This document shows, in pieces, positions 21,401 to 50,037 of a DNA stretch of 64,000 nt. The notes beneath the pieces were generated by a model that saw only the letters and a list, made by a program, of their open reading frames with translations, did no database searches and was not told the DNA's origin. Each line of letters begins with the position of its first letter. Position 1 is the first letter of the stretch. The DNA is taken from the NCBI RefSeq assembly GCF_055900595.2, contig NZ_CM148325.1; one strand, given 5' to 3'. The position numbers were made by a program, and so were the translations under genes.

Positions 21401-21527
21401 GTTTGGTAATTTATTGATAATTAAAAGTTATTTCCCTTTTCACCTGTACAATATTTTTTTCTTCCTGTCATTAGACCAGTTTGCAATTAATTGAAATATA
21501 TAAATAAACCTGATTTTCACCTGCCAG

Positions 21528-22067: not shown

Positions 22068-22075
22068 GAGGAATA

Positions 22076-25892: not shown

Positions 25893-25905
25893 TTCCTGGT
25901 TCAGG

Positions 25906-27864: not shown

Positions 27865-27950
27865 ACGTCGCAGACAACAACTCTGATGGCCCGTAAGGGC
27901 TTTTTTTGTACCTGAAATCAGCCCCTGAACGGGGCTGTGCGGAGACAGTT

Positions 27951-28542: not shown

Positions 28543-28553
28543 AGAGGTGTGGG

Positions 28554-29144: not shown

Positions 29145-29542
29145 ACCGACATACACAAATCCGCCAGGTCGTACTGGCACGCCTTCGGGAACAGTGTGGA
29201 GACAGCGCCACGTTTTTTGACGGGCTTCCGGCATTTATTGATGCGCAGGAACTGCCTGCCGTGGCGGTGTGGCTGAGTGATGCTCAGTACACCGGAAAAA
29301 TGACGGATGAAGATGACTGGCAGGCTGTTCTGCATATTGCCGTCTTCATCCGGGCACAGGCACCGGATTCAGAGCTGGATATGTGGATGGAGAGCACCAT
29401 TTTCCCGGCCCTGAATGATGTACCGGCACTTTCCGGACTCATCGACACCCTGAACCCACTCGGTTTTAACTATCAACGTGATAATGAGATGGCCACCTGG
29501 GCGATGGCGGAAATCACGTACCAGATCACGTACACGAATTAA
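29129..29542 (+). CDS. Tail terminator protein (gpU-like)
   Basis: ATFFDGLPAFIDAQELPAVAVWLSDAQYTG...DSELDMWMES matches lambda U. Confidence 0.9.
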   Translation: MADPMNRHTQIRQVVLARLREQCGDSATFFDGLPAFIDAQELPAVAVWLSDAQYTGKMTDEDDWQAVLHIAVFIRAQAPDSELDMWMESTIFPALNDVPALSGLIDTLNPLGFNYQRDNEMATWAMAEITYQITYTN

Positions 29543-29552
29543 GGAGGTGGTA

Positions 29553-30296: not shown

Positions 30297-30316
30297 CAGG
30301 ACGATACTCATCATTT

Positions 30317-30340
30317 GCCCCGGTTATGCGGGGCTTTTTT
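30317..30340 (+). terminator. Intrinsic terminator-like hairpin between V and G
   Basis: gccccggttatgcggggc followed by tttttt. Confidence 0.55.
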
Positions 30341-30356
30341 GCAGGTGGAGAACATG

Positions 30357-30743
30357 ATGTTTCTGAAACAGGACACGTTTAATTATGAAAAACAGTCCGT
30401 GGTGCTCAGTGAGCTGTCCGGGCTGCAGAGAATTGAATATCTGACGTTTGTTCAGCAGCGAACGGCAAAGTTTGATGCCGTGGAGGGAGAACTGCCGGAG
30501 GCTGAACGACAGATTGCTTTTCTGCGGATGGGGATGGATATCAATGCCTGGCTGGTTTCCCGCTCACTGTGGAATGCGGATCAGTCTAAGGATGTAGAGA
30601 CGCTTTGCGCATCCGTTATTACAACATGGTCGTATGATGCCCTGGGTGCGGGGGCGGAGATGGTTCTGTCGCTGAGCGGTATGGGGGCCATTGATAATGC
30701 CGTGGATGATGAGCATGAGGCGCTGACGCCGGAAAAGTCCTGA
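30357..30743 (+). CDS. Tail assembly chaperone G
   Basis: MFLKQDTFNYEKQSVVLSELSGLQRIEYL matches lambda G. Confidence 0.85.
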   Translation: MFLKQDTFNYEKQSVVLSELSGLQRIEYLTFVQQRTAKFDAVEGELPEAERQIAFLRMGMDINAWLVSRSLWNADQSKDVETLCASVITTWSYDALGAGAEMVLSLSGMGAIDNAVDDEHEALTPEKS

Positions 30744-31081
30744 CGCGGGAAATGCAGTTTGTCATGCGGCTTGCCCGGGAGTTCCGGCGGGCAGACTGGC
30801 GGCGGATGCTGTCGGAAATGTCGGCCACTGAGCTTGGTGAGTGGGGCGATTATTTCCGGATGCAGAGCTTCAGTGATGTGTGGATGGATGCGCAGTTTGC
30901 CTCGCTGAAGGCATTGATCGTGAGAATGGTGTCCGGCAGCAGTGATGCTGCGGTGGCTGATTTCAGCCTTTTACCGGAAGAGAACGGGATACCGGAGCGA
31001 ACGGACGAAGAACTGATGCATCTTGGGGAAGGTATTTCCGGAGGTGTGCGTTATGGACCAGATAGCCAACCTGGTCATTGA
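30677..31081 (+). CDS. Tail assembly protein T segment (expected as G-T fusion via -1 frameshift)
   Basis: -1 frame is open from 30677 across the G stop into the T-like ORF. Confidence 0.7.
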
Positions 31082-34000
31082 TTTGGGGATTGATGCGGCA
31101 GAGTTTAAAAATGAAATTCCCCGTATCAAAAACCTTCTGAATGGTGCAGCCAGCGATGCAGAACGGTCTTCTGCCCGTATGCAGCGTTTTATGGAGCGTC
31201 AGACTCAGGCCGCCCGGCAGACAACGCAGGCAGCTTCTTCGGCTGCAACAGCCGCATCCGTCCATGCGCAGACGGTGGAGAAGAACGCACAGGCTCATGA
31301 ACGCATGGCCCGCGAGGTGGAGAAAACCCGCCAGCGCATGGAGGCACTGAGCCAGAAAATGCGCGAGGAACAGGCGCAGGCCATCGCTCTGGCGGAGGCT
31401 CAGGATAAAGCGGCTGCTGCGTTTTATCGTCAGATTGACAGTGTGAAACAGGCCAGTGCGGGGCTGCAGGAATTACAGCGTATTCAGCAGCAGATCCGAC
31501 AGGCCAGAAACAGTGGCGGGATTGGTCAGCAGGATTATCTGGCGCTGATTTCTGAGGTTACGGCGAAAACCCGTGTTCTTACGCAGGCTGAGGCAGAGGC
31601 TACCCGACAGAAAGTGGCGTTTATCCGTCAGCTTAAAGAGCAGGCAACCCGCCAGAATCTTTCTTCTTCTGAGTTGCTTCGTGCCAGGGCTGCCCAGCTG
31701 GGGGTAAGCAGTGCTGCAGAAGTGTATATCCGCAAAATGGAGCGGGCAGGAAAAGCCACGCATTCGCTGGGTCTGAAAAGTGCAGCGGCCCGCCAGGAGA
31801 TAGGCGTTCTGATAGGTGAACTGGCCCGCGGCAATTTAGGGGCGCTGAGGGGATCCGGGATAACGCTGGCTAACCGTGCCGGATGGATAGACACACTGAT
31901 GTCACCGAAAGGCATGATGCTGGGCGGGGTTATTGGCGGTATTACCGCGGCCGTCTATGGTCTGGGTAAAGCCTGGTATGACGGTCAGAAGGAGGGGGAA
32001 GAATTTAACCGCCAGCTGTCGCTGACGGGGCATTATGCCGGAGTCACTGCCGGGCAGCTGTGGACGCTCAGTCGTGCTATTTCCGGGAATGGTATCACGC
32101 AACATGCTGCAGCCGGTGCGCTGGCTCAGGTGGTGGGGAGTGGTGCATTTCGTGGAAACGATATCGGTATGGTGGCGAGAGCTGCCGCACAGATGGAGCG
32201 ATCGGTTGGCCAGTCGGTCAGCGATACCATAAATCAGTTTAAGCGGCTGAAGGATGATCCTGTAAATGCCGCGAAGTCTCTGGACAATGAGCTGCATTTT
32301 CTTACTGCCACTCAGCTTGAGCAGATACGCGTCCTTGGAGAGCAGGGGCGGTCCAGTGATGCGGCACGGATAGCCATGTCTGCACTGGCAGAGGAAACCG
32401 GTCGGCGTACTGCGGATATTGATAATAACCTCAATGCGCTGGGCAGTACGCTGCAAACTTTGTCTGACTGGTGGAAGCAGTTCTGGGATGCGGCCATGAA
32501 TATTGGTCGTGAAGATTCGCTGGATGCGCAGATTGCCACTTTGCAGGAGAAAGTGTCGCGGGCGAAAAGACTCCCCTGGACGGCATCATCTTCTCAGGTT
32601 GAATACGATCAGCAGCGTCTTAACGATCTTCAGGAGAAAAAACGCCAGAAGGATTTGCAGGATGCAAAAGAGCAGGCAGAGCGGAATTATCAGGAGCAAC
32701 AGAAACGCCGTAATGCTGAAAATGCTGCACTGAACCGGATGAATGAAACGGAAGCTGCACGACATCAGCGTGAAATTGCGCGTATTAATGCCATGCAGTA
32801 CGCCGATCAGGCTGTCAGGGATGCGGCGATACAACGTGAAAATGAACGTTACGAGAAAGCCCTGGCATCCGGTAAGAAAAAAACACGCGAAACCCGTAAT
32901 GATGAGGCCACCCGGTTATTGCTGCAGTACAGTCAGCAACAGGCACAGGTGGAAGGACAGATTGCTGCTGCCAGACAGTCAGCAGGCATTGCCACGGAAA
33001 GGATGACAGAAGCGCATAAACAGCTCCTGGCTCTGCAGCAGCGCATCAGCGACCTGGACGGGAAAAAACTGACGGCAGATGAAAAGAGTGTGCTGGCCCG
33101 TAAAGATGAACTGATTCAGGCACTGACGCTGCTGGATGTAAAACAGCAGGAGCTTCAGAAACAGACGGCACTCAACGAGCTGAAGAAAAAACAATTCAGC
33201 TGACCAGTCAACTGGCTGAAGAAGAGCGCGCTCAGCGTCAGCAACATGACCTGGATATCGCCACGGTGGGTATGGGTGATCAGCAGCGACAGCGATATCA
33301 GGTACAACTGAGTCTTCGCCAGAAATACCAGCAACAGCTGGAGCAGTTGAGGCGGGATAGTGAGCAGAAAGGGACATATAACACGGATGACTACAGAAAG
33401 GCCGAGCAGGCGCTGACGGAGAGCCTGAACCGACAACTGAATGAGAATCGCCGTTACTGGCAACAGCTTGAAGTTGTGCAGGGTAACTGGAAAAACGGAG
33501 TCCTGCGTGCATTTCAGGATTTTACCGTGGATGCAGATAATACGGCAGAAACAGCAGAACAGGTGTTCTCGTCAGCCTTCAGCAACATGGGAAATGGCCT
33601 GGCAACTTTTGTCACTACCGGCAAACTCAATTTCAAATCCTTCACCTCTTCTGTGCTGTCAGATATGGCGAAAATCCTGGCGCAGGCAACCATGATGAAA
33701 TCGATAAAAGGGATTGGCAGTGTACTGGGATTTGATCTCAGCAGCCTTTCCCTGAATGCCAATGGGGGGATTTATCAGTCTGCTGATTTGAGTCGTTACA
33801 GTGGCACGGTGGTTAACCGTCCGACGTTTTTTGCTTTTGCAAAAGGCGCGGGTGTGATGGGGGAAGCGGGACCTGAAGCCATTCTGCCATTGCGTCGTGG
33901 TGCTGACGGTAAGCTGGGGGTTGTGGCGGATATTGGGGGTTCAGGTATGGCGATGTTTTCCCCGCAGTACAACATCGAGATCAATAACGATGGCACGAAC

Positions 34001-34117
34001 GGGCAGATAGGTCCGGCTGCCCTGAAGGCGGTTTATGACCTCGGGAAAAAAGCGGCAGCGGACTTTATGCAACAGCAGGCCCGTGATGGTGGTCGGTTAA
34101 GTGGAGCATATCGGTAA
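31053..34117 (+). CDS. Tail tape measure protein (gpH-like), interrupted by an apparent frameshift near 33186-33203
   Basis: Two consecutive ORFs (frame 0 to 33203, -1 frame open from 33110) both with tape-measure character; GGAGGTG RBS before ATG 31053. Confidence 0.8.
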
Positions 34118-34446
34118 TGGAGACGTTTCACTGGAAAGTGCGCCCGGATATGAATGTGGTATCAGAGCCGAAAGTGGTGACAGTGAAGCTGGGCGATGGT
34201 TATGAACAGCGTCGTGCGGCGGGACTGAATAACCAGTTGTCGACTTACAGCGTGACGATACGTGTTCGTAAATGTGAACACCCATCTTTAAAAGCCTTTC
34301 TGGAACGGCACGGTGGCGTCCGTGCATTTCAGTGGACGCCACCTTATGACTGGAAACCGATCAGGGTGGTTTGTCGTAAATGGTCGGCAAGCGTGGGGGC
34401 GCTGTGGGTAACCATAACGGCAGATTTTGAACAGGTCGTGGCATAG
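34117..34446 (+). CDS. Minor tail protein M
   Basis: METFHWKVRPDMNVVSEP... matches lambda M. Confidence 0.9.
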   Translation: METFHWKVRPDMNVVSEPKVVTVKLGDGYEQRRAAGLNNQLSTYSVTIRVRKCEHPSLKAFLERHGGVRAFQWTPPYDWKPIRVVCRKWSASVGALWVTITADFEQVVA

Positions 34447-34455
34447 GAGGCTCTG

Positions 34456-35154
34456 ATGCAGGATATTCCACAGGAAACACATCATGAGACGACACGCCTC
34501 ACTCAGTCAGCCCAGGTGGTGCTCTGGGAAATCGATCTGACAGAGGTCGGTGGTGAACGTTATTTTTTCTGTAATGAGCAGAACGAAAAAGGTGAGCCGG
34601 TTACCTGGCAGGGGCGGCAGTATCAGGCATACCCCATTCAGGGGACGGGATTTGAACTGAACGGCAAGGGCAGTGCTGCCCGTCCGACACTGACGGTTTC
34701 TAACCTGCACGGAATGGTCACCGGGATGGCGGAAGACCTGCAGAGTCTGGTCGGCGGAACGGTGGTCAGGCGTAAGGTTTACGCCCGTTTTCTGGATGCG
34801 GTGAACTTCGTCAACGGAAACAGTGACGCCGATCCGGAGCAGGAGGTGATCAGCCGCTGGCGCATCGAGCAGTGCAGCGAACTGAGCGCGGTCAGTGCCT
34901 CTTTTGTACTGTCCACGCCGACGGAAACGGACGGTGCTGTTTTTCCGGGACGTATTATGCTGGCCAACACCTGCACCTGGACCTATCGCGGCGATGAGTG
35001 CGGTTATAGCGGTCCGGCGGTCGCGGATGAATATGATCAGCCGACGTCCGATATCACGAAGGATAAATGCAGCAAATGCCTGAGCGGCTGTAAGTTCCGC
35101 AATAACGTCGGCAACTTTGGCGGTTTTCTTTCCATTCACAAACTTTCGCAGTAA
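34456..35154 (+). CDS. Minor tail protein L
   Basis: Lambda L-like, conserved Cys cluster at the C-terminus. Confidence 0.9.
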   Translation: MQDIPQETHHETTRLTQSAQVVLWEIDLTEVGGERYFFCNEQNEKGEPVTWQGRQYQAYPIQGTGFELNGKGSAARPTLTVSNLHGMVTGMAEDLQSLVGGTVVRRKVYARFLDAVNFVNGNSDADPEQEVISRWRIEQCSELSAVSASFVLSTPTETDGAVFPGRIMLANTCTWTYRGDECGYSGPAVADEYDQPTSDITKDKCSKCLSGCKFRNNVGNFGGFLSIHKLSQ

Positions 35155-35158
35155 TTCC

Positions 35159-35902
35159 ATGACAGAGACAGAATCAGCGATTCTGGCGCACGCCCGGCGA
35201 TGTGCGCCAGCGGAGTCGTGCGGCTTCGTGGTGAGAGCGCCGGAGGGGGAAAGATATTTCCCCTGCGTGAATATCTCCGGTGAGCCGGAGGCGTATTTCC
35301 GGATGTCGCCGGAGGACTGGCTGCAGGCAGAGATGCAGGGTGAGATTGTGGCACTGGTCCACAGTCACCCCGGTGGTCTGCCCTGGCTGAGTGAGGCCGA
35401 CCGGCGGCTGCAGGTGCAGAGTGATTTGCCGTGGTGGCTGGTTTGCCGGGGAGCGATTCACAAGTTCCGCTGTGTGCCACATCTTTCCGGGCGGCGCTTT
35501 GAGCACGGGGTGACGGACTGTTACACGCTGTTCCGGGATGCTTACCATCTGGCGGGGATTGAGATGCCGGATTTTCATCGCGAGGATGACTGGTGGCGTA
35601 ACGGTCAGAATCTCTATCTGGATAATCTGGAGGCCACAGGGCTGTATCAGGTGCCGTTGTCAGCGGCGCAGCCGGGCGATGTGCTGCTGTGCTGTTTTGG
35701 TTCATCGGTGCCGAATCATGCCGCCATTTACTGTGGTGACAGCGAGCTGCTGCACCATATTCCTGAACAACTGAGCAAACGAGAGAGGTACACCGACAAA
35801 TGGCAGCGACGCACACACTCCCTCTGGCGTCACCGGGCATGGCACGCATCTGCCTTTACGGGGATTTACAACGATTTGGCCGCCGCATCGACCTTCGAGT
35901 GA
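35159..35902 (+). CDS. Tail assembly protein K (MPN/JAB plus NlpC/P60-like)
   Basis: VALVHSHPGG motif; lambda K-like. Confidence 0.9.
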   Translation: MTETESAILAHARRCAPAESCGFVVRAPEGERYFPCVNISGEPEAYFRMSPEDWLQAEMQGEIVALVHSHPGGLPWLSEADRRLQVQSDLPWWLVCRGAIHKFRCVPHLSGRRFEHGVTDCYTLFRDAYHLAGIEMPDFHREDDWWRNGQNLYLDNLEATGLYQVPLSAAQPGDVLLCCFGSSVPNHAAIYCGDSELLHHIPEQLSKRERYTDKWQRRTHSLWRHRAWHASAFTGIYNDLAAASTFE

Positions 35903-36447
35903 AAACGGGGTCCGAAGCCATCCGGGCGCTGGCCATGCAGATCCCGGCGTTTCGTCAGAAACTGAGCGACGGCTGGTACCAGGTACGCATTGCCGGGCGT
36001 GATGCCGGTGAAACCGAATTGTCTGCCCGTCTTAATGAGCCGCTGGCAAATGGTGCCGTGATCCACATCGTGCCGCGTCTGGCGGGAGCTAAAAGTGGCG
36101 GTGTGTTTCAGGTGGTGCTGGGGGCGGCGCTGATTGCGGTGGCATGGTGGAACCCTGTGGGCTGGCTGGGAGCCGCGGCTGTATCGGGTATGTATGCGGC
36201 AGGGGCCAGTATGATCCTGGGCGGAGTGGCGCAGATGCTGGCACCGAAAGCCAGGACGCCCACGGCAGCAAGTACAGATAACGGCAAACAGAACACCTAT
36301 TTCTCCTCACTGGATAACATGGTTGCCCAGGGCAATGTTCTGCCCGTTCTGTACGGTGAAATGCGCGTGGGGTCGCGGGTGGTCTCTCAGGAGATCAGCA
36401 CGGCAGACGAAGGGGATGGTGGTCAGGTTGTGGTGATTGGTCGCTGA
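35800..36447 (+). CDS. Tail assembly protein I
   Basis: MAATHTLPLASPGMARICLYGDLQRFG... matches lambda I; overlaps K. Confidence 0.9.
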   Translation: MAATHTLPLASPGMARICLYGDLQRFGRRIDLRVKTGSEAIRALAMQIPAFRQKLSDGWYQVRIAGRDAGETELSARLNEPLANGAVIHIVPRLAGAKSGGVFQVVLGAALIAVAWWNPVGWLGAAAVSGMYAAGASMILGGVAQMLAPKARTPTAASTDNGKQNTYFSSLDNMVAQGNVLPVLYGEMRVGSRVVSQEISTADEGDGGQVVVIGR

Positions 36448-36507
36448 TGAAAAACGTTTTATGTGAAACCGCCTCCGGGCGGTTTTGTCGTTTATGGAGC
36501 GTTAGGA

Positions 36508-39500
36508 ATGGGTAAAGGCAGCAGTAAGGGGCATACTCCGCGCGAAGCGAAGGACAACCTGAAGTCCACGCAGTTGCTGAGTGTGATCGATGCCATCAGC
36601 GAAGGGCCGGTTGAAGGTCCGGTAGATGGATTAAAAAGCGTGCTGCTGAACAGTACGCCAGTGCTGGACATTGAGGGGAATACCAACATCTCCGGCGTCA
36701 CGGTGGTGTTCCGGGCCGGTGAGCAGGAGCAAACACCGCCGGAGGGATTTGAATCCTCCGGCTCCGAGACGGTGCTGGGTACGGAAGTGAAATACGACAC
36801 GCCGATCACCCGGACCATCACGTCGGCAAACATTGACCGACTGCGTTTTACCTTCGGCGTGCAGGCACTGGTGGAAACCACCTCAAAGGGGGACAGGAAT
36901 CCGTCGGAAGTCCGCCTGCTGGTTCAGATACAACGTAACGGTGGCTGGGTGACGGAAAAAGACATCACCATTAAAGGCAAAACCACCTCACAGTATCTGG
37001 CCTCGGTGGTGGTGGGTAACCTGCCGCCGCGCCCGTTCAATATCCGGATGCGCAGGATGACGCCGGACAGCACCACAGACCAACTGCAGAACAAAACGCT
37101 CTGGTCGTCATACACCGAAATCATCGATGTGAAACAGTGCTACCCGAACACGGCACTGGTTGGCGTGCAGGTGGACTCGGAGCAGTTCGGCAGCCAGCAG
37201 GTGAGCCGTAATTATCATCTTCGCGGGCGCATTCTGCAGGTGCCGTCGAACTATAACCCGCAGACGCGGCAATACAGCGGTATCTGGGACGGAACGTTAA
37301 AACCGGCATACAGCAACAACATGGCCTGGTGTCTGTGGGATATGCTGACCCACCCGCGCTACGGCATGGGGAAACGTCTTGGTGCGGCAGATGTGGATAA
37401 ATGGGCGCTGTATGTCATCGGCCAGAATTGCGACCAGTCGGTGCCGGACGGCTTTGGCGGTACGGAGCCGCGCATCACCTGTAACGCTTACCTGACCACA
37501 CAACGTAAGGCGTGGGATGTGCTCAGTGATTTCTGCTCGGCGATGCGCTGTATGCCGGTATGGAGCGGGCAGACGCTGACGTTCGTGCAGGACCGACCGT
37601 CGGATAAGGTGTGGACCTATAACCGCAGTAATGTGGTGATGCCGGATGATGGCGCGCCGTTCCGCTACAGCTTCAGCGCCCTGAAAGACCGCCATAATGC
37701 CGTTGAGGTGAACTGGATTGACCCGGATAACGGCTGGGAGACGGCAACAGAGCTTGTGGAGGACTCGCAGGCCATTGCCCGTTACGGTCGTAACGTCACG
37801 AAGATGGATGCCTTTGGCTGTACCAGCCGGGGGCAGGCACACCGCGCCGGGCTGTGGCTGATTAAAACGGAGCTGCTGGAAACGCAGACGGTGGACTTCA
37901 GCGTGGGTGCCGAAGGGCTTCGCCATGTGCCGGGCGATGTTATTGAAATCTGCGATGATGACTATGCCGGTATCAGCATCGGTGGTCGCGTGCTGGCGGT
38001 GAACAGCCAGACCCGGACGCTGACGCTCGACCGTGAAATCACGCTGCCATCCTCCGGCACCACGCTGATAAGCCTGGTTGACGGTGAGGGTAATCCGGTC
38101 AGCGTGGAGGTCCAGTCCGTCACCGACGGCGTGAAGGTGAAAGTGAGCCGTGTTCCTGACGGCGTTGCTGAATACAGCGTGTGGGGGCTGAAGTTGCCGA
38201 CGTTGCGCCAGCGCCTGTTCCGCTGCGTGAGTATCCGTGAGAACGACGACGGCACGTATGCCATCACTGCCGTGCAGCATGTACCGGAGAAAGAGGCCAT
38301 CGTGGATAACGGGGCGCACTTTGACGGTGACCAGAGCGGCACGGTGAATGGTGTCACGCCGCCAGCAGTGCAGCACCTGACCGCAGAAGTCACTGCAGAC
38401 AGCGGGGAATATCAGGTGCTGGCGCGATGGGACACACCGAAGGTGGTGAAGGGCGTGAGCTTCCTGCTTCGCCTGACCGTGGCAGCGGATGACGGCAGTG
38501 AGCGGCTGGTCAGCACGGCCCGGACGACGGAAACCACTTACCGCTTCACACAACTGGCTCTGGGGAACTACAGGCTGACAGTCCGGGCAGTAAATGCGTG
38601 GGGGCAGCAGGGCGATCCGGCGTCGGTATCGTTCCGGATTGCCGCACCGGCAGCGCCGTCGCGGATTGAGCTGACGCCGGGCTATTTTCAGATAACCGCC
38701 ACGCCGCATCTTGCGGTTTATGATCCGACGGTACAGTTTGAGGTCTGGTTCTCGGAAAAACGGATTGCTGATATCAGGCAGGTTGAAACCAGCGCGCGTT
38801 ATCTTGGTACGGCGCTGTACTGGATAGCCGCCAGTATCAATATCAAACCGGGTCGTGATTATTACTTTTATATCCGCAGTGTGAACACCGTCGGCAAATC
38901 GGCATTCGTGGAGGCTGTTGGTCGGGCGAGCGATGATGCGGAAGGTTACCTGGATTTTTTCAAAGGCCAGATAACCGAATCCCATCTCGGCAAGGAGCTG
39001 CTGGAAAAAGTCGAGCTGACGGAGGATAACGCCAGCAGACTGGAGGAGTTTTCGAAAGAGTGGAAGGACGCCAGTGATAAGTGGAATGCCATGTGGGGCG
39101 TCAAAATTGAGCAGACCAAAGACGGCAAACATTATGTCGCGGGTATTGGCCTCAGTATGGAGGATACAGAGGAAGGCAAACTGAGTCAGTTTCTGGTTGC
39201 CGCCAATCGTATCGCGTTTATTGACCCGGCAAACGGGAATGAAACGCCGATGTTTGTGGCGCAGGGCAACCAGATATTCATGAACGACGTGTTCCTGAAA
39301 CGCCTGACGGCCCCCACCATTACCAGCGGCGGTAATCCTCCGGCATTTTCCCTGACACCGGATGGGCGGCTGACGGCGAAAAATGCCGATATCAGCGGTA
39401 ACGTGAATGCGAACTCCGGGACGCTCAACAACGTCACGATTAACGAGAACTGTCGGGTTCTGGGAAAACTGTCCGCGAACCAGATTGAAGGCGATCTCGT

Positions 39501-39903
39501 TAAAACAGTGGGCAAAGCTTTCCCCCGGGACTCCCGTGCACCGGAGCGGTGGCCATCAGGGACCATTACCGTCAGGGTTTATGACGATCAGCCGTTTGAC
39601 CGGCAGATTGTTATTCCGGCGGTGGCATTCAGCGGCGCTAAACATGAGAGAGAGCATACTGATATTTACTCCTCATGCCGTCTGATAGTGCGGAAAAACG
39701 GTGCTGAAATTTATAACCGTACCGCGCTGGATAATACGCTGATTTACAGTGGCGTTATTGATATGCCTGCCGGTCACGGTCACATGACGCTGGAGTTTTC
39801 GGTGTCAGCATGGCTGGTAAATGACTGGTATCCCACAGCAAGTATCAGCGATTTGCTGGTTGTGGTGATGAAGAAAGCCACCGCAGGCATCAGTATCAGC
39901 TGA
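36508..39903 (+). CDS. Host specificity protein J (central tail fibre)
   Basis: Near-identical to lambda J over most of its length as I recall it; C-terminal about 150 aa diverge. Confidence 0.9.
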
Positions 39904-39922
39904 ATTTTATAACCCATATACG

Positions 39923-39946
39923 GGCGCCAGAAATGGCGCCTTTTTT
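39923..39946 (+). terminator. Rho-independent terminator after J
   Basis: gggcgccagaaatggcgcctttttt. Confidence 0.7.
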
Positions 39947-39970
39947 ATTGCAGAAAAGCGAGAGGTAATT

Positions 39971-40570
39971 ATGCGTAAAGTTTGTGCAGCCATTTTGTCC
40001 GCAGCCATCTGTCTGTCCGTATCCGGTGCGCCTGCATGGGCATCTGAACATCAGTCCACGCTGAGCGCGGGGTATCTTCATGCCTCGACGAACGTTCCCG
40101 GCAGCGATGATCTTAACGGGATTAACATGAAATACCGTTATGAGTTTACGGACACACTGGGGCTGGTGACGTCATTCAGCTATGCAGGAGACAAGAATCG
40201 CCAGCTTACCCGTTACAGCAATACCCGCTGGCATGAAGATTCCGTGCGTAACCGCTGGTTCAGCGTGATGGTGGGGCCGTCTGTGCGCGTGAATGAATGG
40301 TTCAGCGCGTATGCGATGGCGGGTATGGCTTACAGCCGTGTGTCGACTTTTTCCGGGGATTATCTCCGCGTAACTGACAATAAGGGGAAAACGCACGATG
40401 TGCTGACCGGAAGTGATGACGGTCGCCACAGCAACACGTCTCTGGCGTGGGGAGCTGGCGTGCAGTTTAACCCGACCGAATCCGTGGCCATTGATATTGC
40501 TTATGAAGGCTCCGGCAGTGGTGACTGGCGCACTGACGGTTTCATCGTGGGTGTCGGTTATAAATTCTGA
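39971..40570 (+). CDS. lom: Lom-like outer-membrane protein (Ail/Lom family)
   Basis: Signal peptide plus beta-barrel, ends with aromatic residue; lambda Lom-like. Confidence 0.85.
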
Positions 40571-40596
40571 TTAGCCAGGTAACACAGTGTTATGAC

Positions 40597-40623
40597 AGCC
40601 CGCCGGTTCAGGCGGGCTTTTTG
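40597..40623 (+). terminator. Rho-independent terminator after lom
   Basis: agcccgccggttcaggcgggcttttt. Confidence 0.7.
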
Positions 40624-41330
40624 TGCACAGAAAACCCCCAGCTAGGCTGGGGGTTCCGGAAAGCTTTCAGCTTTGAGCCAGTTATTAAAACCCCTTTTGA
40701 TTTGTTAAAACACCTTGCGGTCTGGCAACTGCAAGTGTCAAACAAGAAATCAAAAGGGGGTCCCAATGGGGGACGAAAAGAGCTTAGCGCACACCCGCTG
40801 GAACTGTAAATATCACATAGTTTTTGCGCCGAAATACCGAAGACTGGCGTTTTACGGAGAGAAGCGTAGGGCGATAGGCAGTATTTTGAGAAAGCTGTGT
40901 GAGTGGAAAAGCGTACGGATTCTGGAAGCAGAGTGCTGCGCAGATCATATCCATATGCTTGTGGAAATCCCACCCAAAATGAGCGTATCCGGCTTTATGG
41001 GATATCTGAAAGGGAAAAGCAGTCTGATGCTTTACGAGCAGTTTGGGGATTTGAAATTCAAATACAGAAACAGGGAGTTCTGGTGCCGAGGGTACTATGT
41101 CGATACGGTGGGTAAGAACACGGCGAAGATACAGGACTACATAAAGCACCAGCTTGAAGAGGATAAAATGGGGGAGCAGTTATCGATTCCATATCCGGGC
41201 AGCCCGTTTACGGGCCGTAAGTAACGAAGTTGAATGCAAATGTCAGATCGTATGCGCCTGTTAGGGCGCGGCTGGTAACAGAGCCTTACAGGCGCATTTG
41301 AAAAACCTCCGGCTATGCCGGAGGATATTT
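40621..41330 (+). mobile_element. IS200-family insertion sequence (about 710 bp, boundaries approximate)
   Basis: Left-end hairpin cccccagctaggctggggg, second stem-loop over the RBS, tnpA, right-end hairpin cctccggctatgccggagg. Confidence 0.8.
40766..41224 (+). CDS. tnpA: IS200 transposase TnpA (HUH Y1 transposase)
   Basis: MGDEKSLAHTRWNCKYHIVFAPKYRR...HIHMLVEIPPKMSVS matches IS200 TnpA. Confidence 0.9.
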   Translation: MGDEKSLAHTRWNCKYHIVFAPKYRRLAFYGEKRRAIGSILRKLCEWKSVRILEAECCADHIHMLVEIPPKMSVSGFMGYLKGKSSLMLYEQFGDLKFKYRNREFWCRGYYVDTVGKNTAKIQDYIKHQLEEDKMGEQLSIPYPGSPFTGRK

Positions 41331-41345
41331 ATTTGTGGAGTGGAT

Positions 41346-43751
41346 ATGGCAGCAGTAAAAATCTCAGGTGTGCTGAAAGATGGTGCGGGAAAACCAATAC
41401 AGAACTGCACTATTCAACTGAAGGCAAAGCGTAACAGCACCACGGTACTGGTGAACACGGTGGCTTCTGAAAATCCGGATGAAGCCGGACGTTACAGCAT
41501 GGATGTTGAGTATGGCCAGTACAGCGTCACCCTGCTGGTTGAAGGTTTTCCGCCTTCACATGCCGGGACCATTACCGTCTATGAAGGCTCCAGACCAGGT
41601 ACGCTGAATGATTTTCTCGGTGCCATGACGGAAGATGATGTCATGCCGGAGGCATTGCGTCGTTTTGAGGCAATGGTGGAAGAAGTGGCACGCAACGCCG
41701 AAGCCGCCTCTCAGAGCGCAGCGGCGGCAAAGAAATCCGAAACTGCAGCGGCATCATCAAAGAACGCGGCGAAAACCTCAGAAACGAATGCAGCTAATAG
41801 TGCACAGGCGGCAGCGACCTCAAAGACTGCATCGGCAAACTCCGCGACAGCAGCCAAAAAATCAGAAACCAACGCGAAAAATAGCGAGACAGCCGCAAAG
41901 ACGAGCGAAACCAACGCAAAGTCCAGCCAGACGGCAGCGAAAACCAGCGAAACGAATGCCAAAGCCAGTGAAACTGCGGCAAAAAACAGCCAGGTTGCAG
42001 CAGCCCAAAGCGAGAGCGCGGCAGCCGGTTCTGCGACTTCAGCAGCTGGATCAGCAACTGCTGCGGCTAACAGCCAGAAAGCTGCGAAGACGAGTGAAAC
42101 TAACGCAAAGTCCAGCCAGACGGCAGCGAAGACCAGCGAAACGAATGCCAAAACCAGCGAAACTGCGGCGAAAAACAGTCAGGATGCAGCAGCCCAAAGC
42201 GAGAGTGCTGCAGCTGGTTCTGCAAGCGCGGCGGCTGCTTCTGCCACTGCATCAGCTAACAGTCAAAAAGCAGCAAAAACCAGTGAAACCAACGCAAAGG
42301 CGAGCGAGACTGCGGCGGCGAACTCGGCGCAAGCATCGGCAGCAAGCCAGACAGCAGCTAAAGCAAGTGAAGACGCAGCCAGAGAGTATGCAAGCCAGGC
42401 AGCGGAGCCGTATAAACAAGTTTTGCAGCCGTTGCCCGATGTGTGGATACCGTTTAATGATTCACTGGATATGATTACGGGCTTTTCGCCATCATATAAA
42501 AAAATTGTTATTGGCGACGATGAAATAACAATGCCTGGCGACAAGATTGTAAAGTTTAAACGCGCATCGAAAGCAACTTACATTAATAAATCTGGTGTGC
42601 TGACAGAGGCTGCCATTGACGAGCCACGATTTGAACGTGATGGCCTGCTTATTGAGGGGCAAAGAACTAACCTGCTAATCAATTCAACAAATCCGACTAA
42701 ATGGAACAAGTCGTCAAATATGATCTTAAGTGCATCAGGTGTAGATGATTTCGGATTCCAGTACGCAAAATTTACATTAAAACCAGAAATGGTAGGGCAA
42801 ATTTCAGCGATTAACATAGTAACCGTTTCCGGCAGTAAAGGTTTTGATGTAACAGGCGGAGAAAAGTATGTAACCATATCATGCAGGGTGCAAAGTGGCA
42901 CTCCAAATTTAAGATGCCGATTACGATTTGAAAACTATGATGGTTCTACCTACACATTCTTAGGTGACGCTTACTTAAATACGACAGATTTATCTATTGA
43001 TAAGACGGGTGGTGCCGCTAATCGCATTACTGCAAGGGCTGTTAAAGATGAAGCAAGCAAATGGATCTTTTTTGAGGCGACAATTAAGGCACTTGATACA
43101 GAAAATATGATAGGTGGAATGGTTCAGTATGCCCCGGCAAAAGGAGTGGGCACTGGCGCGGATGATTATATTTATATTGCGACCCCTCAAGTTGAAGGTG
43201 GGGCGTGCGCTTCATCGTTTATTATAACAGGCGCATCCCCTGTAACACGCGCCAGCGATATTGTGACGGTCCCCATTTCTCTAAATTGGTGCAATCCCGC
43301 TATTAGTTCATTAGCAGAAGTTAATACCAATTGGGATGAATCGCCAAACAAAGAAGGTAGCGCACGTATTCTTAATATTTCCACTACGGGAGATACAACT
43401 GAAATTGCAGATGAAAGTTATATGTATTTGGGGTATACATCTTTGGGAGCACGCGCAATCATTACAAATGGTAAAGGCACTAAAATAGAATATAAAAGCG
43501 TTATAGAACGACCAGAGAGAAAAAGCATTATCGGCTTTAGATTCACAGAAAGTCGAGAATTGTGTGTTGTGGTTAACGGTAATATTGGTGCTAAGGTAGT
43601 TTCTCCTTATAAAAAACACAAATATACAGGAGGCTTCATTAATATTGGTGGTCAATCATCATCCGGCAACCGTCACCTATTTGGACACGTTCGAAATCTG
43701 CGTATTTGGCACAAGGCATTGACTGATGCTCAGATGGGGGAGTCAATCTAA
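41346..43751 (+). CDS. Side tail fibre protein (Stf-like)
   Basis: N-terminus MAAVKISGVLKDGAGKPIQNCTIQLKAKRNSTTV matches Stf; Ala/Ser/Thr-rich repeats; divergent C-terminal domain. Confidence 0.85.
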   Translation: MAAVKISGVLKDGAGKPIQNCTIQLKAKRNSTTVLVNTVASENPDEAGRYSMDVEYGQYSVTLLVEGFPPSHAGTITVYEGSRPGTLNDFLGAMTEDDVMPEALRRFEAMVEEVARNAEAASQSAAAAKKSETAAASSKNAAKTSETNAANSAQAAATSKTASANSATAAKKSETNAKNSETAAKTSETNAKSSQTAAKTSETNAKASETAAKNSQVAAAQSESAAAGSATSAAGSATAAANSQKAAKTSETNAKSSQTAAKTSETNAKTSETAAKNSQDAAAQSESAAAGSASAAAASATASANSQKAAKTSETNAKASETAAANSAQASAASQTAAKASEDAAREYASQAAEPYKQVLQPLPDVWIPFNDSLDMITGFSPSYKKIVIGDDEITMPGDKIVKFKRASKATYINKSGVLTEAAIDEPRFERDGLLIEGQRTNLLINSTNPTKWNKSSNMILSASGVDDFGFQYAKFTLKPEMVGQISAINIVTVSGSKGFDVTGGEKYVTISCRVQSGTPNLRCRLRFENYDGSTYTFLGDAYLNTTDLSIDKTGGAANRITARAVKDEASKWIFFEATIKALDTENMIGGMVQYAPAKGVGTGADDYIYIATPQVEGGACASSFIITGASPVTRASDIVTVPISLNWCNPAISSLAEVNTNWDESPNKEGSARILNISTTGDTTEIADESYMYLGYTSLGARAIITNGKGTKIEYKSVIERPERKSIIGFRFTESRELCVVVNGNIGAKVVSPYKKHKYTGGFINIGGQSSSGNRHLFGHVRNLRIWHKALTDAQMGESI
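41901..42278 (+). repeat. Tandem direct repeat (about 189 bp x2) inside stf
   Basis: acgagcgaaaccaacgcaaagtccagccagacggcagcgaaaaccagcgaaacgaatgcc... repeated with few substitutions. Confidence 0.75.
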
Positions 43752-44032
43752 TGAAAGATTTAACACTCAAATTTGCCGACAGGGCCGACTTTTCGGCTTT
43801 TATGGGAAGTATTGGCTATTATAATGACGAGTCGATGCAGGATGATATTCTGATTGATGTGATAGGTAACGTGTACAAAGAAACCGGAGAGCTGACTGAA
43901 GATGGCGAACCGGTATGTGTTAAGGAAGATGGATATTTTGTAAACGTGCGCATCATTAAGGATACGCAAATATCGTCATTATTCGATGAATACGCGGTTG
44001 CTGTTGAGCATCAACTTCGTGGCTGGATGTGA
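43751..44032 (+). CDS. Hypothetical tail-fibre-associated protein (93 aa)
   Basis: ORF starting at the stf stop. Confidence 0.5.
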   Translation: MKDLTLKFADRADFSAFMGSIGYYNDESMQDDILIDVIGNVYKETGELTEDGEPVCVKEDGYFVNVRIIKDTQISSLFDEYAVAVEHQLRGWM

Positions 44033-44041
44033 GGTAGAGAA

Positions 44042-44746
44042 ATGGCTACATCAACAGTAATTCCGGGAGACATCACCACGCTGAAGGGAGATGTTAGTAA
44101 AGCAAAGGAAGATATTTCCTCTATTAACGGAAAAGTATCAACGCTTCAGACTGATATGGCCAGTGCAAAGCAGGATATCAGCACCAGATACACAAAAACT
44201 GAAGTTGATAATAAGCTGAAAAACAAAGTGGAAGTGAACGATCTGGAAAGTGGTCGTTATGGCGGAGATTTTTACCCGCTGACTGGCCGTGAAGCGTTTT
44301 ATTTATGGGGATTGGGCACAACTACAGCGGCGGCAAATCTTTATCTTAATCCTGACCCTGCAATTTCGTCTGTGCTGCGGTCAACATCGTCTATCCGCTA
44401 TAAACATTCAGTAGAGACGATAGATTCAGAGCACGCCGATCTCATTTTCAGGATGCGCCCTGTGTGGTACAGGTCGCAATGCGAAAATGACAGGCGTGAC
44501 TGGGGATTCTATGGATTGATTGCCGAGGAAGTTGGAGAAATTGCCCCTCAGTTTGTTCACTGGCGACCAGCCAACGAAGATGATGCACCGGAAACCATTT
44601 CCAGCAATGGCCTTGTTGCCGAAGGTGTAATGTACGAACGTCTGGTTGTTCCACTGATTCACCATATCCAGAAGCTGACTGAAAGAGTTGATGAACTTGA
44701 GTCAGAATTAAAGTTGTTATCCGTTTCCCGAAGCGATATCGGATAA
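44042..44746 (+). CDS. Tail-fibre-related protein with C-terminal chaperone-like (S74-type) domain
   Basis: N-terminal coiled-coil; C-terminal GFYGLIAEEVGEIAPQFVHWRP resembles the intramolecular chaperone domain of fibre/spike proteins. Confidence 0.5.
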   Translation: MATSTVIPGDITTLKGDVSKAKEDISSINGKVSTLQTDMASAKQDISTRYTKTEVDNKLKNKVEVNDLESGRYGGDFYPLTGREAFYLWGLGTTTAAANLYLNPDPAISSVLRSTSSIRYKHSVETIDSEHADLIFRMRPVWYRSQCENDRRDWGFYGLIAEEVGEIAPQFVHWRPANEDDAPETISSNGLVAEGVMYERLVVPLIHHIQKLTERVDELESELKLLSVSRSDIG

Positions 44747-44756
44747 AGGAGGCGTA

Positions 44757-45050
44757 ATGGATATAACACCTTTCCTTCATGCACTTTGTGCTGTGGCTGC
44801 GCAGGTACTGGTTGGTCTTTTTACCGGAAACTGGGCTTACGGGGCGATAGCTGGTTGTACGTTCTTCATTGCGCGTGAACATACCCAGGCAGAATATCGC
44901 TGGATTGAAATGTTCGGGCATGGCAAGCGTATGAATATGCCGTGGTGGGGCGGTTTTGATCCGCGTGCGTGGGATGTGGCAAGCCTGATGGATTTTGCTG
45001 TGCCGGTGGTGGCGTGTCTGCTGGTCTGGCTGTTGGTTAATCGTGGGTGA
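44757..45050 (+). CDS. Small membrane protein (97 aa, 2 TM)
   Basis: RBS AAGGAGG before the ATG; two hydrophobic helices. Confidence 0.5.
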   Translation: MDITPFLHALCAVAAQVLVGLFTGNWAYGAIAGCTFFIAREHTQAEYRWIEMFGHGKRMNMPWWGGFDPRAWDVASLMDFAVPVVACLLVWLLVNRG

Positions 45051-45064
45051 AAAAAGGTGAGCTG

Positions 45065-45178
45065 TATATGCAACGGAGGAAGAAACCTCGTTGCGGGAAG
45101 CCTTGAAGAAGTATCGGGTGTTGCTGAACCGTGTTGATACGTCAACTGCACAGGATATTGAATGGCCAGCACTGCCGT
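45065..45178 (+). pseudogene. Remnant of a tail fibre assembly gene (Tfa C-terminus only)
   Basis: Translation [34 protein letters not shown] matches the conserved Tfa C-terminus; no N-terminal part. Confidence 0.65.
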
Positions 45179-45277
45179 AGGGTAAAACATATAAATTCTA
45201 TAATTAGATGTATCTTTCCATTTACGGCAAGGAAGGGGGCTTGGAAGACGTAAGGCATCTCACACCGAGATTATTTT

Positions 45278-45868
45278 TTATATGTCAGGTGTCTGAAGTT
45301 TTGCTTTGGCTCTTAAAATGGTTTGCCGCGAGGTTTTGAATTCCCGGGCAATGGCACTTATACTTACACCTGACTTAATCCGTTCGAATACCACCTGTTT
45401 CTGTTCTTCATTTAACACAGGTGGTCGACCAAAACGTTTCCCTGCGCCCCGGGCTCTTACTATCCCGGAATGAGTGCGTTCAAGTAAAAGGTCTCGTTCA
45501 AATTCAGCGACTGCTGAAATTACTTGCATCATCATTTTTCCTGTTGGACTGGTCAGGTCAATGCCCCCCAATGCTAAGCAATGCACTCTGATACCTGTTT
45601 CGGTCAGTTGTTCCACTGTTTTCCTGATATCCATTGCATTACAACCAAGGCGATCCAGTTTTGTCACAATCAATTGATCACCACATTTCAGGCGAGCAAG
45701 CAACCGGTTAAAACCAGGACGCTCACTGGTTGCTGCTGAGCCGCTAATGTGTTCTTCGATTATTTGCTGAGGTTTGATTTTAAAACCTGCACTTTCGATT
45801 TCCCGGCGTTGATTTTCGGTGGTCTGATCCAGCGTTGATATCCGACAGTAAGCAAAAATTCGAGACAT
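45278..45868 (-). CDS. pin: Pin-type serine DNA invertase
   Basis: [29 protein letters not shown]... matches PinQ/PinR as I recall them. Confidence 0.9.
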
Positions 45869-46184
45869 AGTGAGACTCTATACGAAATTGGTGTTCATAT
45901 CATAATGCATCTCAGAAAATAATTTTGATTATTTTTGTGCATGTTTGTATGTACACGTTCGAAAATAAACGAATGCGTATGCAACCCCGTAATTTTGGTG
46001 AGACCCAAAATCGATTTTGTGAAAAATGGCTTTAACTCGGTTTGTTTTTCGAGTTCCGGGCGGACTCAAGGAAGAAGAATAGTGTTGCGTGTTATTTTAA
46101 CCAGATTTCAAGTTGTTTGGTCGTGGAAAAGTGGAGCAAAATGTTGTTAAAGTGGAAAAATGATAAAAAAGTAAGTTTATTATA

Positions 46185-46418
46185 TTACATTTTACCATTT
46201 AAATTTTGGTTGTCTTTAAGAACTGATATCGCTGTTTGTAATAATTCTTTGTTATCCAGCCATGATTTTTTCTTTATGTTTCCTTCAATGTAATCAAGCA
46301 ATGTTCTGGTATTGATAGGTCTTCCCTGTTTTGCTACTTCCACTACAGCATCCCCTAGGATAATTCTGACTTCAGGAAGCTGCGCAGGGAACCACTTTAG
46401 GGTGTCTTTTGATTTCAT
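46185..46418 (-). CDS. ydfK: YdfK-like cold-shock-associated protein
   Basis: 77 aa MKSKDTLKWFPAQLPEVRIILGDAVVEVAKQGRPINTRTLLDYIEG... matches YdfK/YnaE. Confidence 0.8.
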   Translation of the reverse strand: MKSKDTLKWFPAQLPEVRIILGDAVVEVAKQGRPINTRTLLDYIEGNIKKKSWLDNKELLQTAISVLKDNQNLNGKM

Positions 46419-47203
46419 GAATATATTCCTTAAAATATTATTGATTTTCATTGCGATATTGTATGTCTGATTCAGGATATGTTGACTTATACATCGGTTT
46501 TGTCTGGGTTATTGGATATGCCAATCCCTAATTTTATTAGAGCATGACTAAAAATGCTGAATATGATAAGGAGCGAAGTGATTATCAGTATGCTGTTCAT
46601 ATAGCCTCGAATTATTAATGTGTTATATATGATATAGTTGACAATTTTTATCCTGGGTGTTCTTAAAGTTCGTAGATAAACATTGTCGTTTCAGGTATAC
46701 AGGAATGCTAACAGATGGCGGCAAAAATCAGGCGGTTTATGGCGCAAGCTGAAGTGGCAACTGCAAACTATCTTATGCAGAGACTCTACACGGATTGGGT
46801 TTAAAAGTATACATAGATAACAGTTTTTATCTGAAGAAGAAAAATATCAAGGTGATATAGCCTATATGCCTTTGATGCGGAGGAATGAATGTGATGGGAG
46901 TGATGTATCTGAATAGTTGAAAAACCGCAGACACGCCTTATGCAAGAACGTGCTGCGGTTGGCTGGTAAATTTTTCGATAGTGCGAGTATTGAATGATTT
47001 CCAGCCGTTATTGATTTTACGCGTAACTCCATGAAAAAACTACTTATCTGTTGAGGAGTTTTTTTGGGGCATATATGGGACAGAAATAGGCCCCAGATAG
47101 ACACTGAGATCGAACTTAGGATGCTTTTTAAAAAATGCAACTATCTGAAAAAACCTAGAAAACGCCAAGGAAACCACAGGATGGGAAAAAACACCTGTGA
47201 ATC

Positions 47204-48487
47204 ATGGATTTCCAGTTATATTCGCTCGGCGCAGCGTTAGTGTTTCATGAAATATTTTTTCCTGAATCATCAACGGCAATGGCGTTAATTCTGGCAATGG
47301 GAACCTACGGTGCAGGTTATGTGGCGCGTATTGTCGGAGCATTTATTTTCGGCAAAATGGGCGACAGAATCGGGCGTAAAAAAGTGCTCTTTATTACCAT
47401 CACTATGATGGGGATCTGTACCACCTTAATTGGTGTGCTGCCGACCTATGCACAAATTGGTGTGTTTGCGCCAATTTTGCTGGTGACGCTGCGTATTATT
47501 CAGGGGCTGGGGGCAGGCGCGGAAATTTCCGGTGCCGGTACGATGCTGGCGGAATATGCGCCAAAAGGTAAGCGCGGAATTATCTCCTCATTTGTTGCTA
47601 TGGGGACTAACTGCGGAACCTTGAGCGCAACGGCAATCTGGGCCTTTATGTTCTTCATTCTCAGTAAAGAGGAACTGTTGGCGTGGGGATGGCGTATACC
47701 GTTCCTGGCGAGCGTTGTCGTGATGGTCTTTGCTATCTGGTTGCGTATGAATCTGAAAGAAAGCCCGGTCTTTGAGAAGGTTAACGACAGCAACCAACCG
47801 ACAGCAAAACCTGCACCTGCTGGTAGCATGTTCCAGAGCAAATCCTTCTGGCTGGCAACAGGGCTGCGTTTTGGTCAGGCTGGTAACTCAGGTTTAATTC
47901 AGACTTTCCTTGCAGGCTATTTAGTGCAGACGTTATTGTTTAACAAAGCAATTCCAACAGATGCATTGATGATCAGTTCGATTCTCGGCTTTATGACCAT
48001 TCCGTTCCTTGGTTGGTTATCCGATAAAATTGGTCGCCGGATCCCGTATATTATTATGAATACCTCTGCGATTGTGCTGGCGTGGCCAATGCTTTCTATC
48101 ATCGTAGATAAAAGCTATGCCCCGAGCACCATTATGGTTGCACTGATTGTGATTCATAACTGTGCGGTGCTGGGATTATTTGCTCTGGAAAACATTACCA
48201 TGGCAGAAATGTTCGGCTGTAAAAACCGCTTTACCCGGATGGCCATTTCTAAAGAAATTGGTGGTCTTATCGCTTCCGGTTTTGGTCCTATCCTGGCGGG
48301 TATTTTCTGCACCATGACGGAATCCTGGTATCCGATCGCCATTATGATCATGGCATATTCAGTGATTGGTTTAATCTCTGCGCTGAAAATGCCAGAAGTG
48401 AAAGACCGTGATTTAAGTGCACTGGAAGATGCCGCGGAAGATCAACCGCGTGTTGTAACAGCTGCGCAACCTTCAAGAAGTCTGTAA
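47204..48487 (+). CDS. ydfJ: MFS transporter YdfJ, 5'-truncated by the prophage insertion
   Basis: 427-aa MFS ORF starting at the prophage/host junction; matches the ydfJ C-terminal fragment. Confidence 0.8.
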   Translation: MDFQLYSLGAALVFHEIFFPESSTAMALILAMGTYGAGYVARIVGAFIFGKMGDRIGRKKVLFITITMMGICTTLIGVLPTYAQIGVFAPILLVTLRIIQGLGAGAEISGAGTMLAEYAPKGKRGIISSFVAMGTNCGTLSATAIWAFMFFILSKEELLAWGWRIPFLASVVVMVFAIWLRMNLKESPVFEKVNDSNQPTAKPAPAGSMFQSKSFWLATGLRFGQAGNSGLIQTFLAGYLVQTLLFNKAIPTDALMISSILGFMTIPFLGWLSDKIGRRIPYIIMNTSAIVLAWPMLSIIVDKSYAPSTIMVALIVIHNCAVLGLFALENITMAEMFGCKNRFTRMAISKEIGGLIASGFGPILAGIFCTMTESWYPIAIMIMAYSVIGLISALKMPEVKDRDLSALEDAAEDQPRVVTAAQPSRSL

Positions 48488-48576: not shown

Positions 48577-50037
48577 ATGGGAAATAATTTGTTATCAGCA
48601 AAAGCGACGCTCCCTGTTTATGATCGTAATAACCTGGCCCCAAGAATTGTTCATTTAGGCTTTGGTGCATTTCACCGTGCGCATCAGGGCGTGTATGCCG
48701 ATATTCTTGCTACGGAACATTTCAGTGACTGGGGATATTATGAGGTCAATTTAATCGGCGGCGAACAGCAAATTGCCGATTTACAACAGCAAGATAATCT
48801 TTATACCGTTGCGGAAATGTCGGCCGATGCGTGGACGGCTCGCGTCGTTGGCGTCGTTAAAAAAGCCTTGCACATACAAATAGATGGCTTAGAAACCGTG
48901 CTGGCTGCGATGTGTGAACCGCAAATCGCGATTGTCTCTCTGACAATCACCGAAAAAGGGTATTTCCACTCTCCGGCGACCGGACAGTTAATGCTCGATC
49001 ACCCGATGGTCGTTGCCGACGTGCAAAATCCCCACCAGCCGAAAACTGCAACAGGGGTGATTGTTGAGGCGCTGGCTCGCCGTAAAGCGGCAGGACTTCC
49101 CGCATTTACCGTCATGTCATGTGACAACATGCCAGAAAACGGTCATGTTATGCGTGACGTTGTCACTTCCTACGCGCAAGCTGTTGATGTAAAACTGGCA
49201 CAATGGATCGAAGAAAACGTGACTTTCCCATCAACAATGGTGGACCGTATTGTGCCCGCAGTGACGGAGGATACGCTGGCGAAAATCGAACAACTTACCG
49301 GTGTGCGCGATCCTGCTGGCGTTGCCTGTGAACCTTTCCGCCAGTGGGTAATAGAAGATAACTTTGTTGCCGGACGTCCGGAATGGGAAAAAGCGGGAGC
49401 CGAACTGGTTAGTGATGTGCTGCCTTATGAAGAGATGAAGTTGCGCATGCTCAACGGCAGTCATTCATTCCTGGCGTATCTGGGGTATCTTGCCGGATAT
49501 CAGCACATTAATGACTGCATGGAAGATGAACATTATCATCATGCAGCGTATGCCTTGATGTTGCAGGAACAAGCGCCCACGCTGAAAGTGCAGGGCGTTG
49601 ATTTGCAAGATTACGCTAACCGATTAATTGAACGCTATAGCAACCCGGCGCTACGTCATCGAACCTGGCAGATTGCGATGGATGGCAGCCAGAAATTGCC
49701 ACAGCGGATGTTGGATTCTGTTCGCTGGCATCTGGCGCATGACAGCAAGTTCGATCTGCTGGCGCTGGGCGTCGCGGGTTGGATGCGTTATGTCGGTGGT
49801 GTTGATGAACAGGGAAATCAGATAGAAATCAGTGACCCACTGTTACCTGTTATTCAGAAGGCAGTACAAAGTAGTGCTGAAGGGAAAGCGCGCGTCCAGT
49901 CATTGCTGGCGATTAAGGCGATCTTTGGTGATGATTTACCGGGCAATAGCTTGTTTACTGCAAAAGTGACGGAAGCGTACTTGTCTTTATTAGCGCATGG
50001 CGCAAAAGCGACCGTGGCGAAATATTCCGTGAAGTAA
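48577..50037 (+). CDS. ydfI: Mannitol/mannonate dehydrogenase family oxidoreductase
   Basis: 486 aa with N-terminal Rossmann motif [11 protein letters not shown]. Confidence 0.85.

Follow-up and report, generated by a model that had tools for sequence, protein, structure and literature searches.

An attR junction of a lambda-like prophage at the Qin attachment site within ydfJ

Results

Positions 47204-47212 of the window (the whole stretch of 64,000 nucleotides that was analyzed) are, at a probability of roughly 0.96, the attR crossover core of a ~47.9-kb lambda-like temperate prophage that was integrated by a tyrosine integrase at codons 29 to 31 of ydfJ. Earlier publications already describe the site, the loss of 28 codons, and the att sequence; the assignment is thus correct but ordinary, with no new biology. 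Integration of Qin at the 5' end of ydfJ was previously described as removing the promoter and 28 N-terminal codons, and the Qin site was occupied in 48% of 638 strains (PMC6379469). An 18- to 19-bp att of the ydfJ prophages was set from attP, attB, attL, and attR by Nakamura et al. (2021, PMC8112680). The attP was found by PCR, and many strains, K-12 among them, were described as having phages at ydfJ (Nakamura et al. 2021, PMC8112680). The features on which the present assignment is based are as follows.

1..47203, no strand assigned: portion of the lambdoid prophage within the window; the left ~741 bp (3' part of the integrase gene plus attL) are outside
47204-47212, + strand: attR common core ATGGATTTC, the 9-bp crossover region, equal to ydfJ codons Met29-Asp30-Phe31
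47204..48487, + strand: ydfJ', a 5'-truncated gene for an MHS-family MFS transporter, codons 29-455 plus stop
48577..50037, + strand: ydfI, the host gene downstream of ydfJ, from the annotation of homologous regions

Truncation of ydfJ at position 47204

The + strand open reading frame (ORF) at 47204..48487 encodes 427 aa and begins at Met29 of intact ydfJ. In E. coli SMS-3-5, ydfJ is intact (455 codons, annotated as 1368 nt) and lies directly after rspB, and its translation opens MTIEKHERSTKDLVKAAVSGWLGTALEF-MDFQLYS.... Codons 29-455 of the SMS-3-5 gene were identical to window positions 47204-48487 at 1271 of 1284 nt, with two amino-acid differences, and directly left of 47204 the identity to the intact gene was at chance level. 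The first-pass annotation had proposed that ydfJ starts abruptly at 47204 without its N-terminal segment and had named alignment to an uninterrupted ydfJ as the way to check this; the comparison with SMS-3-5 confirmed the proposal, since the window copy lacks the first 28 codons and starts at codon 29 of 455. The in-frame codon upstream of 47204 is ATC, preceded by a TGA at 47198-47200, and therefore the ydfJ' ORF cannot be extended leftward.

The missing 84 nt (28 aa) had no match in the window when up to three mismatches were allowed, and searches of the window for the 28-codon segment with blastn-short and tblastn returned only chance-level matches. Besides codons 1-28, the window lacks the ydfJ ribosome-binding site and the promoter region on the rspAB side, and it contains no intact 455-aa YdfJ with the N-terminal half of transmembrane helix 1. 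In a Pfam search of the window ORF, the MFS_1 match of ydfJ' started only at profile position 33, which, with the helices assigned as in MHS transporters, fits the missing start of helix 1.

To the right of ydfJ', ydfI on the + strand is followed by ydfZ, rspR, and ydfG on the − strand, an arrangement that is the E. coli rsp-ydf region. The GC content was 37.7% for 46450-47203 and 36.0% for 45869-47203, 47.1% for ydfJ', and 48.2% for the whole window. An earlier description of the DNA in front of ydfJ as AT-rich prophage sequence with ydfK and pin thus agrees with these values (~37% GC) and with the genes listed further below.

The att core and comparison of four attachment sites

The sequence ATGGATTTC was the sole block identical in attB, attL, attR, and the attP of mEp460 in a four-way alignment, in which the sites read as follows.

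attB (SMS-3-5): ...CTTGAATTT ATGGATTTC CAGTTATATTCG
attL (strains 746 and Ecol_316): ...GAATTT ATGGATTTC AAGAGTCATACG
attR (window): ...CTGTGAATC ATGGATTTC CAGTTATATTCG
attP (mEp460): ...CTGTGAATT ATGGATTTC AAGAGTCATACG

The attP core of Tritos has one mismatch (ATGCATTTC), and directly left of the core (position −1) the window attR has C where K-12 and mEp460 have T; because of this mismatch and this variable base, no more than 9 bp of the exchanged segment can be fixed. An extended, imperfect 18-bp att corresponds to 47198-47215, which was the only match in the 64-kb window; no second att-like site was found there. The core att had earlier been placed outside the window. This is true of the attL copy and wrong for the attR copy, which lies at 47204-47212, inside the very interval that the first-pass annotation had described.

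A synthetic attP, made from window positions 46604-47212 and the phage side of attL taken from relatives, was present as a single contiguous piece, at 98.6 to 99.5% identity, in Tritos (OV696610.1), HannyBb (PP925841.1), PhiR42_1 (PV340562.1), and mEp460_ev081 (LR597641.1), so that these phages share the contiguity of P arm, core, and integrase with the window prophage. A synthetic attB, made by joining the rspB-side flank from a relative to the window from 47204 onward, was found unbroken in 2008 of 5426 complete E. coli genomes, the ydfJ site being empty in ~37% of the 5426, in agreement with the published occupancy. The arrangement ydfK-ynfT-arm-ydfJ' was present in 1985 genomes. Neither an RNA family (Rfam at gathering thresholds) nor a tRNA (ARAGORN) was detected at the junction, and thus the att is not of the tRNA type.

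The left end and the size of the prophage

The window opens inside an integrase gene, which is followed by a gene for an excisionase.

1..586, − strand: tyrosine integrase, codons 1-195 of 426; Pfam Arm-DNA-bind_2 (E = 1.7e-24) and Phage_int_SAM_5
621..872, − strand: excisionase; Pfam DUF1233 (putative excisionase), E = 1.6e-31; likewise annotated in relatives

Window positions 1-872 thus encode the N-terminal 195 aa of the cognate integrase and the excisionase, next to the att. The catalytic C-terminal part of the integrase lies left of the window, and the translated part is identical to the beginning of the 426-aa Ecol_316 integrase. Many genomes share window positions 1-3500 at 99.9 to 100% identity. 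Strains 746 and Ecol_316 have, in succession, rspB, ydfJ codons 1-28, ATGGATTTC, AAGAGTCATACG..., and the stop end of the integrase gene on the − strand. In both strains and in Tritos, 732 nt separate the attL core from the equivalent of window position 1, which places the core at window-equivalent positions −740..−732 (about 733 to 741 bp left of position 1, by near-identical relatives). The Tritos match to the window stops exactly at 47212 and picks up 732 nt on, at position 1. With attL positioned from the 99.9 to 100% identical genomes, the prophage would measure about 47.9 kb (~47,944 bp with one core copy). Neither rspB, nor the left host flank, nor the ydfJ 5' sequence was found anywhere in the window, and therefore no second junction lies within it. 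Two earlier statements, that the other junction is beyond the window and that the prophage exceeds 47 kb, are upheld by these data.

A far junction many kilobases to the left, and an element much larger than 48 kb, would be expected if, as happens in O157:H7 and O26:H11, the prophage were one of at least two in tandem at ydfJ. Such clusters, of two to four prophages, have been documented (PMC8112680, PMC9997748), prophages at the Qin site range from 11 to 97 kb (PMC6379469), and the region left of the integrase lies beyond the window. However, rspB and the ydfJ 5' fragment directly abut the integrase in strains 746 and Ecol_316, no second att-like site occurs in the 47 kb, and the gene order is that of one phage, colinear with Tritos. 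We consider a tandem cluster highly improbable. The PPydfJ prophages of Shiga-toxin-producing E. coli (PMC8112680) occupy the same locus and have an att that was defined alike, a likeness at the level of locus and att definition; unlike the window prophage, they often form tandem clusters with type III effector loci.

Contents of the prophage and its phage relatives

The single ~47.9-kb prophage contains full head and tail modules, a terminase, a CI-like repressor, Q, a P21-type holin, and an endolysin. Colinear megablast matches to Tritos cover 36.7 kb of 47.2 kb, including all structural genes, and window positions 21344-39453 correspond to Tritos 1-18111 at 97.9% identity. Relative to Tritos, the window prophage has mosaic replacements in the immunity, Q-to-lysis, and tail-fibre regions. 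The linear Tritos genome has its ends at the equivalent of 21343/21344, which is therefore the likely cos site of the prophage. From this cos-equivalent point, the structural genes extend to the right, the small terminase gene beginning at 21528. The prophage is Tritos/mEp460-like, probably complete, and possibly inducible.

Two further groups of genes were observed in the prophage. Cargo at 13946-16742, between the Q antiterminator gene (13398-13790) and the P21-type holin gene (16849-17148), comprises genes for a Blc-like lipocalin (− strand), a 2-thiouracil desulfurase plus DUF1722 protein, and an AraC-family regulator; its DNA has a GC content of 36 to 38% and is absent from phage Tritos. 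A two-gene cassette at 10203-11959, present in Tritos at 98.8% identity, encodes first a 204-aa protein without a Pfam match and then, in an overlapping gene, an HTH plus ImmA/IrrE (Peptidase_M78) protein. Matches to RNA families at the Rfam gathering level were as follows.

4061-4112, − strand: DicF sRNA, in the prophage
9712-9886, + strand: sok antitoxin RNA (hok/sok), in the prophage
19259-19675, + strand: cspA-type thermoregulator 5' UTR, in the prophage
40633-40756, + strand: STnc490, in the prophage
56544-56757, + strand: STnc560, in host DNA

Across window positions 40000-64000, identity at 95% coverage did not exceed ~97% for any complete E. coli genome searched, although ydfJ alone is 99.5% identical to many genomes. 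The genome collection seems to lack an exact representative of the source strain or of its variable flanking regions.

Comparison with Qin of K-12

In K-12 MG1655, the Qin feature (1632277-1652745, 20.5 kb) overlaps ydfJ (b1543, 427 aa) by the 9-bp core, and ynfP, at the opposite end of Qin (attL), is the 5' fragment of ydfJ. The attR sequences of K-12 and the window were identical across the 129 nt compared, apart from one base at −1, and the K-12 attL and attR sequences are those described here except for that one base beside the core. Since the two attachment junctions are nearly base-for-base equal to those of K-12, the junction is the Qin attachment position, as had been claimed for it, and the host sequence resumes at the same nucleotide as at K-12 Qin.

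K-12 Qin resembles the window prophage in its insertion point, its 9-bp core, the series pinQ-ydfK-ynfT-P arm, and the 427-aa truncated ydfJ ORF, and K-12 intQ is 99.4% identical to window positions 1-465. These shared parts (the site, the integrase type, and the pin-ydfK-ynfT right end), together with 97.6% identity of window positions 45069-52491 to K-12, would also fit a defective ~20-kb remnant of the K-12 type, whose left junction would be expected inside the window. The differences are, however, extensive. K-12 Qin is 20.5 kb long, has an intQ disrupted by IS2, and lacks head and tail genes, whereas the window element is ~47.9 kb long and has complete modules. Only 8.5 kb of window positions 1-47203 matched K-12 Qin at the megablast level, namely, parts of int, the exo-dicB-DicF stretch, ydfU, the lysis and csp genes, and the pin-ydfK end; head, tail, terminase, CI-like, Q, and lysis genes are present; and the window contains neither a ydfJ 5' fragment nor rspB. 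A K-12-type remnant (~20 kb, with a disrupted integrase and no morphogenesis genes) is thus not what the window holds, and we regard this reading as refuted by the extra phage modules, the 8.5-kb extent of the match, and the absence of a left junction from the window. The occupant is a full-length relative of Qin that shares the integration module and right-end cassette and is not the 20.5-kb defective Qin of K-12. That ydfJ was instead cut by a deletion or rearrangement, with the adjacent phage DNA a coincidence, would account for the bare truncation and nothing further, and it is refuted by the four-way att comparison, in which the break falls exactly at the 9-bp sequence common to attP, attB, attL, and attR and the reciprocal junction holds exactly the missing 28 codons.

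The right-end cassette

Three genes on the − strand precede the junction on the phage side.

45278..45868, − strand: pin, a PinQ-type serine DNA invertase; Pfam Resolvase plus HTH_7, E = 2.5e-36
46185..46418, − strand: ydfK, a cold-shock-inducible small protein of the YnaE family, from the RefSeq annotation of homologous sequence
46487..46600, − strand: ynfT, a 37-aa YnaM/YnfT family protein; Pfam YnaM, E = 6.5e-28; annotated in relatives

The counterpart of pin carries the name pinQ in the annotations of strain 746 and K-12, and ydfK had no Pfam family match. The first-pass annotation had left out ynfT and the ~600-bp noncoding phage arm that runs from ynfT to the junction. The PinQ-type invertase gene adjoins tail-fibre genes (41000-45868), and the annotation of the relative strain 746 has a tail-fibre-assembly remnant at the equivalent of window positions 45070-45180. 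A search of 41000-45400 for inverted repeats bounding a Pin-invertible segment gave weak pairs only, none of them convincing. K-12 PinQ was reported in 2025 to work in trans on the e14 P segment (PMC12529663).

The phage arm of attR

The following elements were recognized between ynfT and the core.

46918..46960, − strand: intrinsic-terminator-like hairpin (stem-loop 46923-46960 and U-tract 46918-46922)
46961..47203, + strand: phage arm of attR (P arm of attP), noncoding; contiguous with the core and the integrase side in four phages
46990-47004, no strand assigned: core-like pseudo-site TTGAATGATTTCCAG, which resembles the att region with a host-type right flank
47025-47040 and 47138-47152, no strand assigned: candidate arm-type repeats, AACTATCTGAAAAA-like

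The main stem of the hairpin has 11 G+C-rich pairs and is followed by UUUUU. Its predicted RNA fold had a free energy of −21.1 kcal/mol (z = −3.26), and none of 200 shuffled sequences folded as well. The stretch is identical in Tritos and mEp460 where aligned, and its right half is kept in Stx2a-phage remnants. In the circular phage, the hairpin is downstream of int across the core, 244 nt past the core; in the prophage, it is parted from int. This layout matches that of the lambda tI/sib terminator, which lies beyond att on the int transcript. By analogy, the hairpin may be a sib/tI-like element, a suggestion that we offer as a hypothesis only; if it were such a terminator, it would act in int regulation only in the excised or circular state.

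The likeness to the lambda Int/Xis/attP system extends to an integrase with an arm-binding N-terminal domain, an adjacent excisionase gene, a short core, and long attP arms. In both, int adjoins the att at one prophage end, and a hairpin past the att, a terminator in lambda and terminator-like in the window phage, is split from int by integration. The att core is 15 bp in lambda and 9 bp in the window prophage. Unlike lambda, the window phage integrates close to the 5' end of a protein-coding gene and does not repair it. Motifs resembling AACT(A/C)(T/C)NTGAAAAA flank the core on both attP arms, the integrase-side copy being outside the window; these repeats are candidate arm-type sites for the integrase.

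The pseudo-core matched the window once, against 0.01 matches expected, in a post hoc test. In Stx2a-phage records, the common sequence ...GATAGTGCGAGTATT runs straight into TATGGATTTCAAGAGTCAT, and their attP remnants, homologous in other respects, are therefore without the ~200 bp that separate the pseudo-core from the true core. In the window, the 193 bp between the two (47005-47197) contain no ORF and resemble neither ydfJ nor other host DNA. Phage 2H10, which has another integrase region, also has the pseudo-core. This pattern of sequences suggests that the attP of the Qin/Tritos type may have been rebuilt through an old nested integration or an aberrant excision, and the pseudo-core could be a secondary site for prophage-in-prophage integration. 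Taken as a whole, the idea that the arm is more than a passive junction, with a sib/tI-like terminator and the fossil pseudo-core of a rebuilt attP as a possible secondary integration site, strikes us as doubtful.

A 92-aa ORF at 46862-47140 (− strand) was rejected as a gene, its Pfam match being sub-threshold only. A promoter scan yielded no excess of promoter-like sites over shuffled sequence and found no such site on the + strand from 46436 to ydfJ'; the scan therefore lends no support to a phage-supplied promoter driving ydfJ'.

Discussion

The four attachment sites bear the classic signature of integrase-mediated site-specific integration, in which the phage attP recombined with the identical 9-bp ATGGATTTC in host ydfJ. 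Integration would cut transmembrane helix 1 of YdfJ, with loss of the start codon and the ribosome-binding site, and would put 48 kb between rspA-rspB and ydfJ-ydfI. Because of the cut helix, the lost start signals, and the separation from rspAB, ydfJ' would probably yield no working transporter in the lysogen, where it is probably silent or nonfunctional. Precise excision by Int and the adjacent excisionase would restore the 455-codon ydfJ.

For annotation, these results mean that the 427-aa "ydfJ" ORF is a prophage-truncated gene and that the edge of the prophage is defined to single-base precision, with the core at 47204-47212. The site is occupied in roughly 60% of complete E. coli genomes, and ydfJ-ydfI is therefore commonly severed from rspAB. 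Here the occupant is a probably complete Tritos/mEp460-like phage of ~47.9 kb and not the K-12 Qin remnant.
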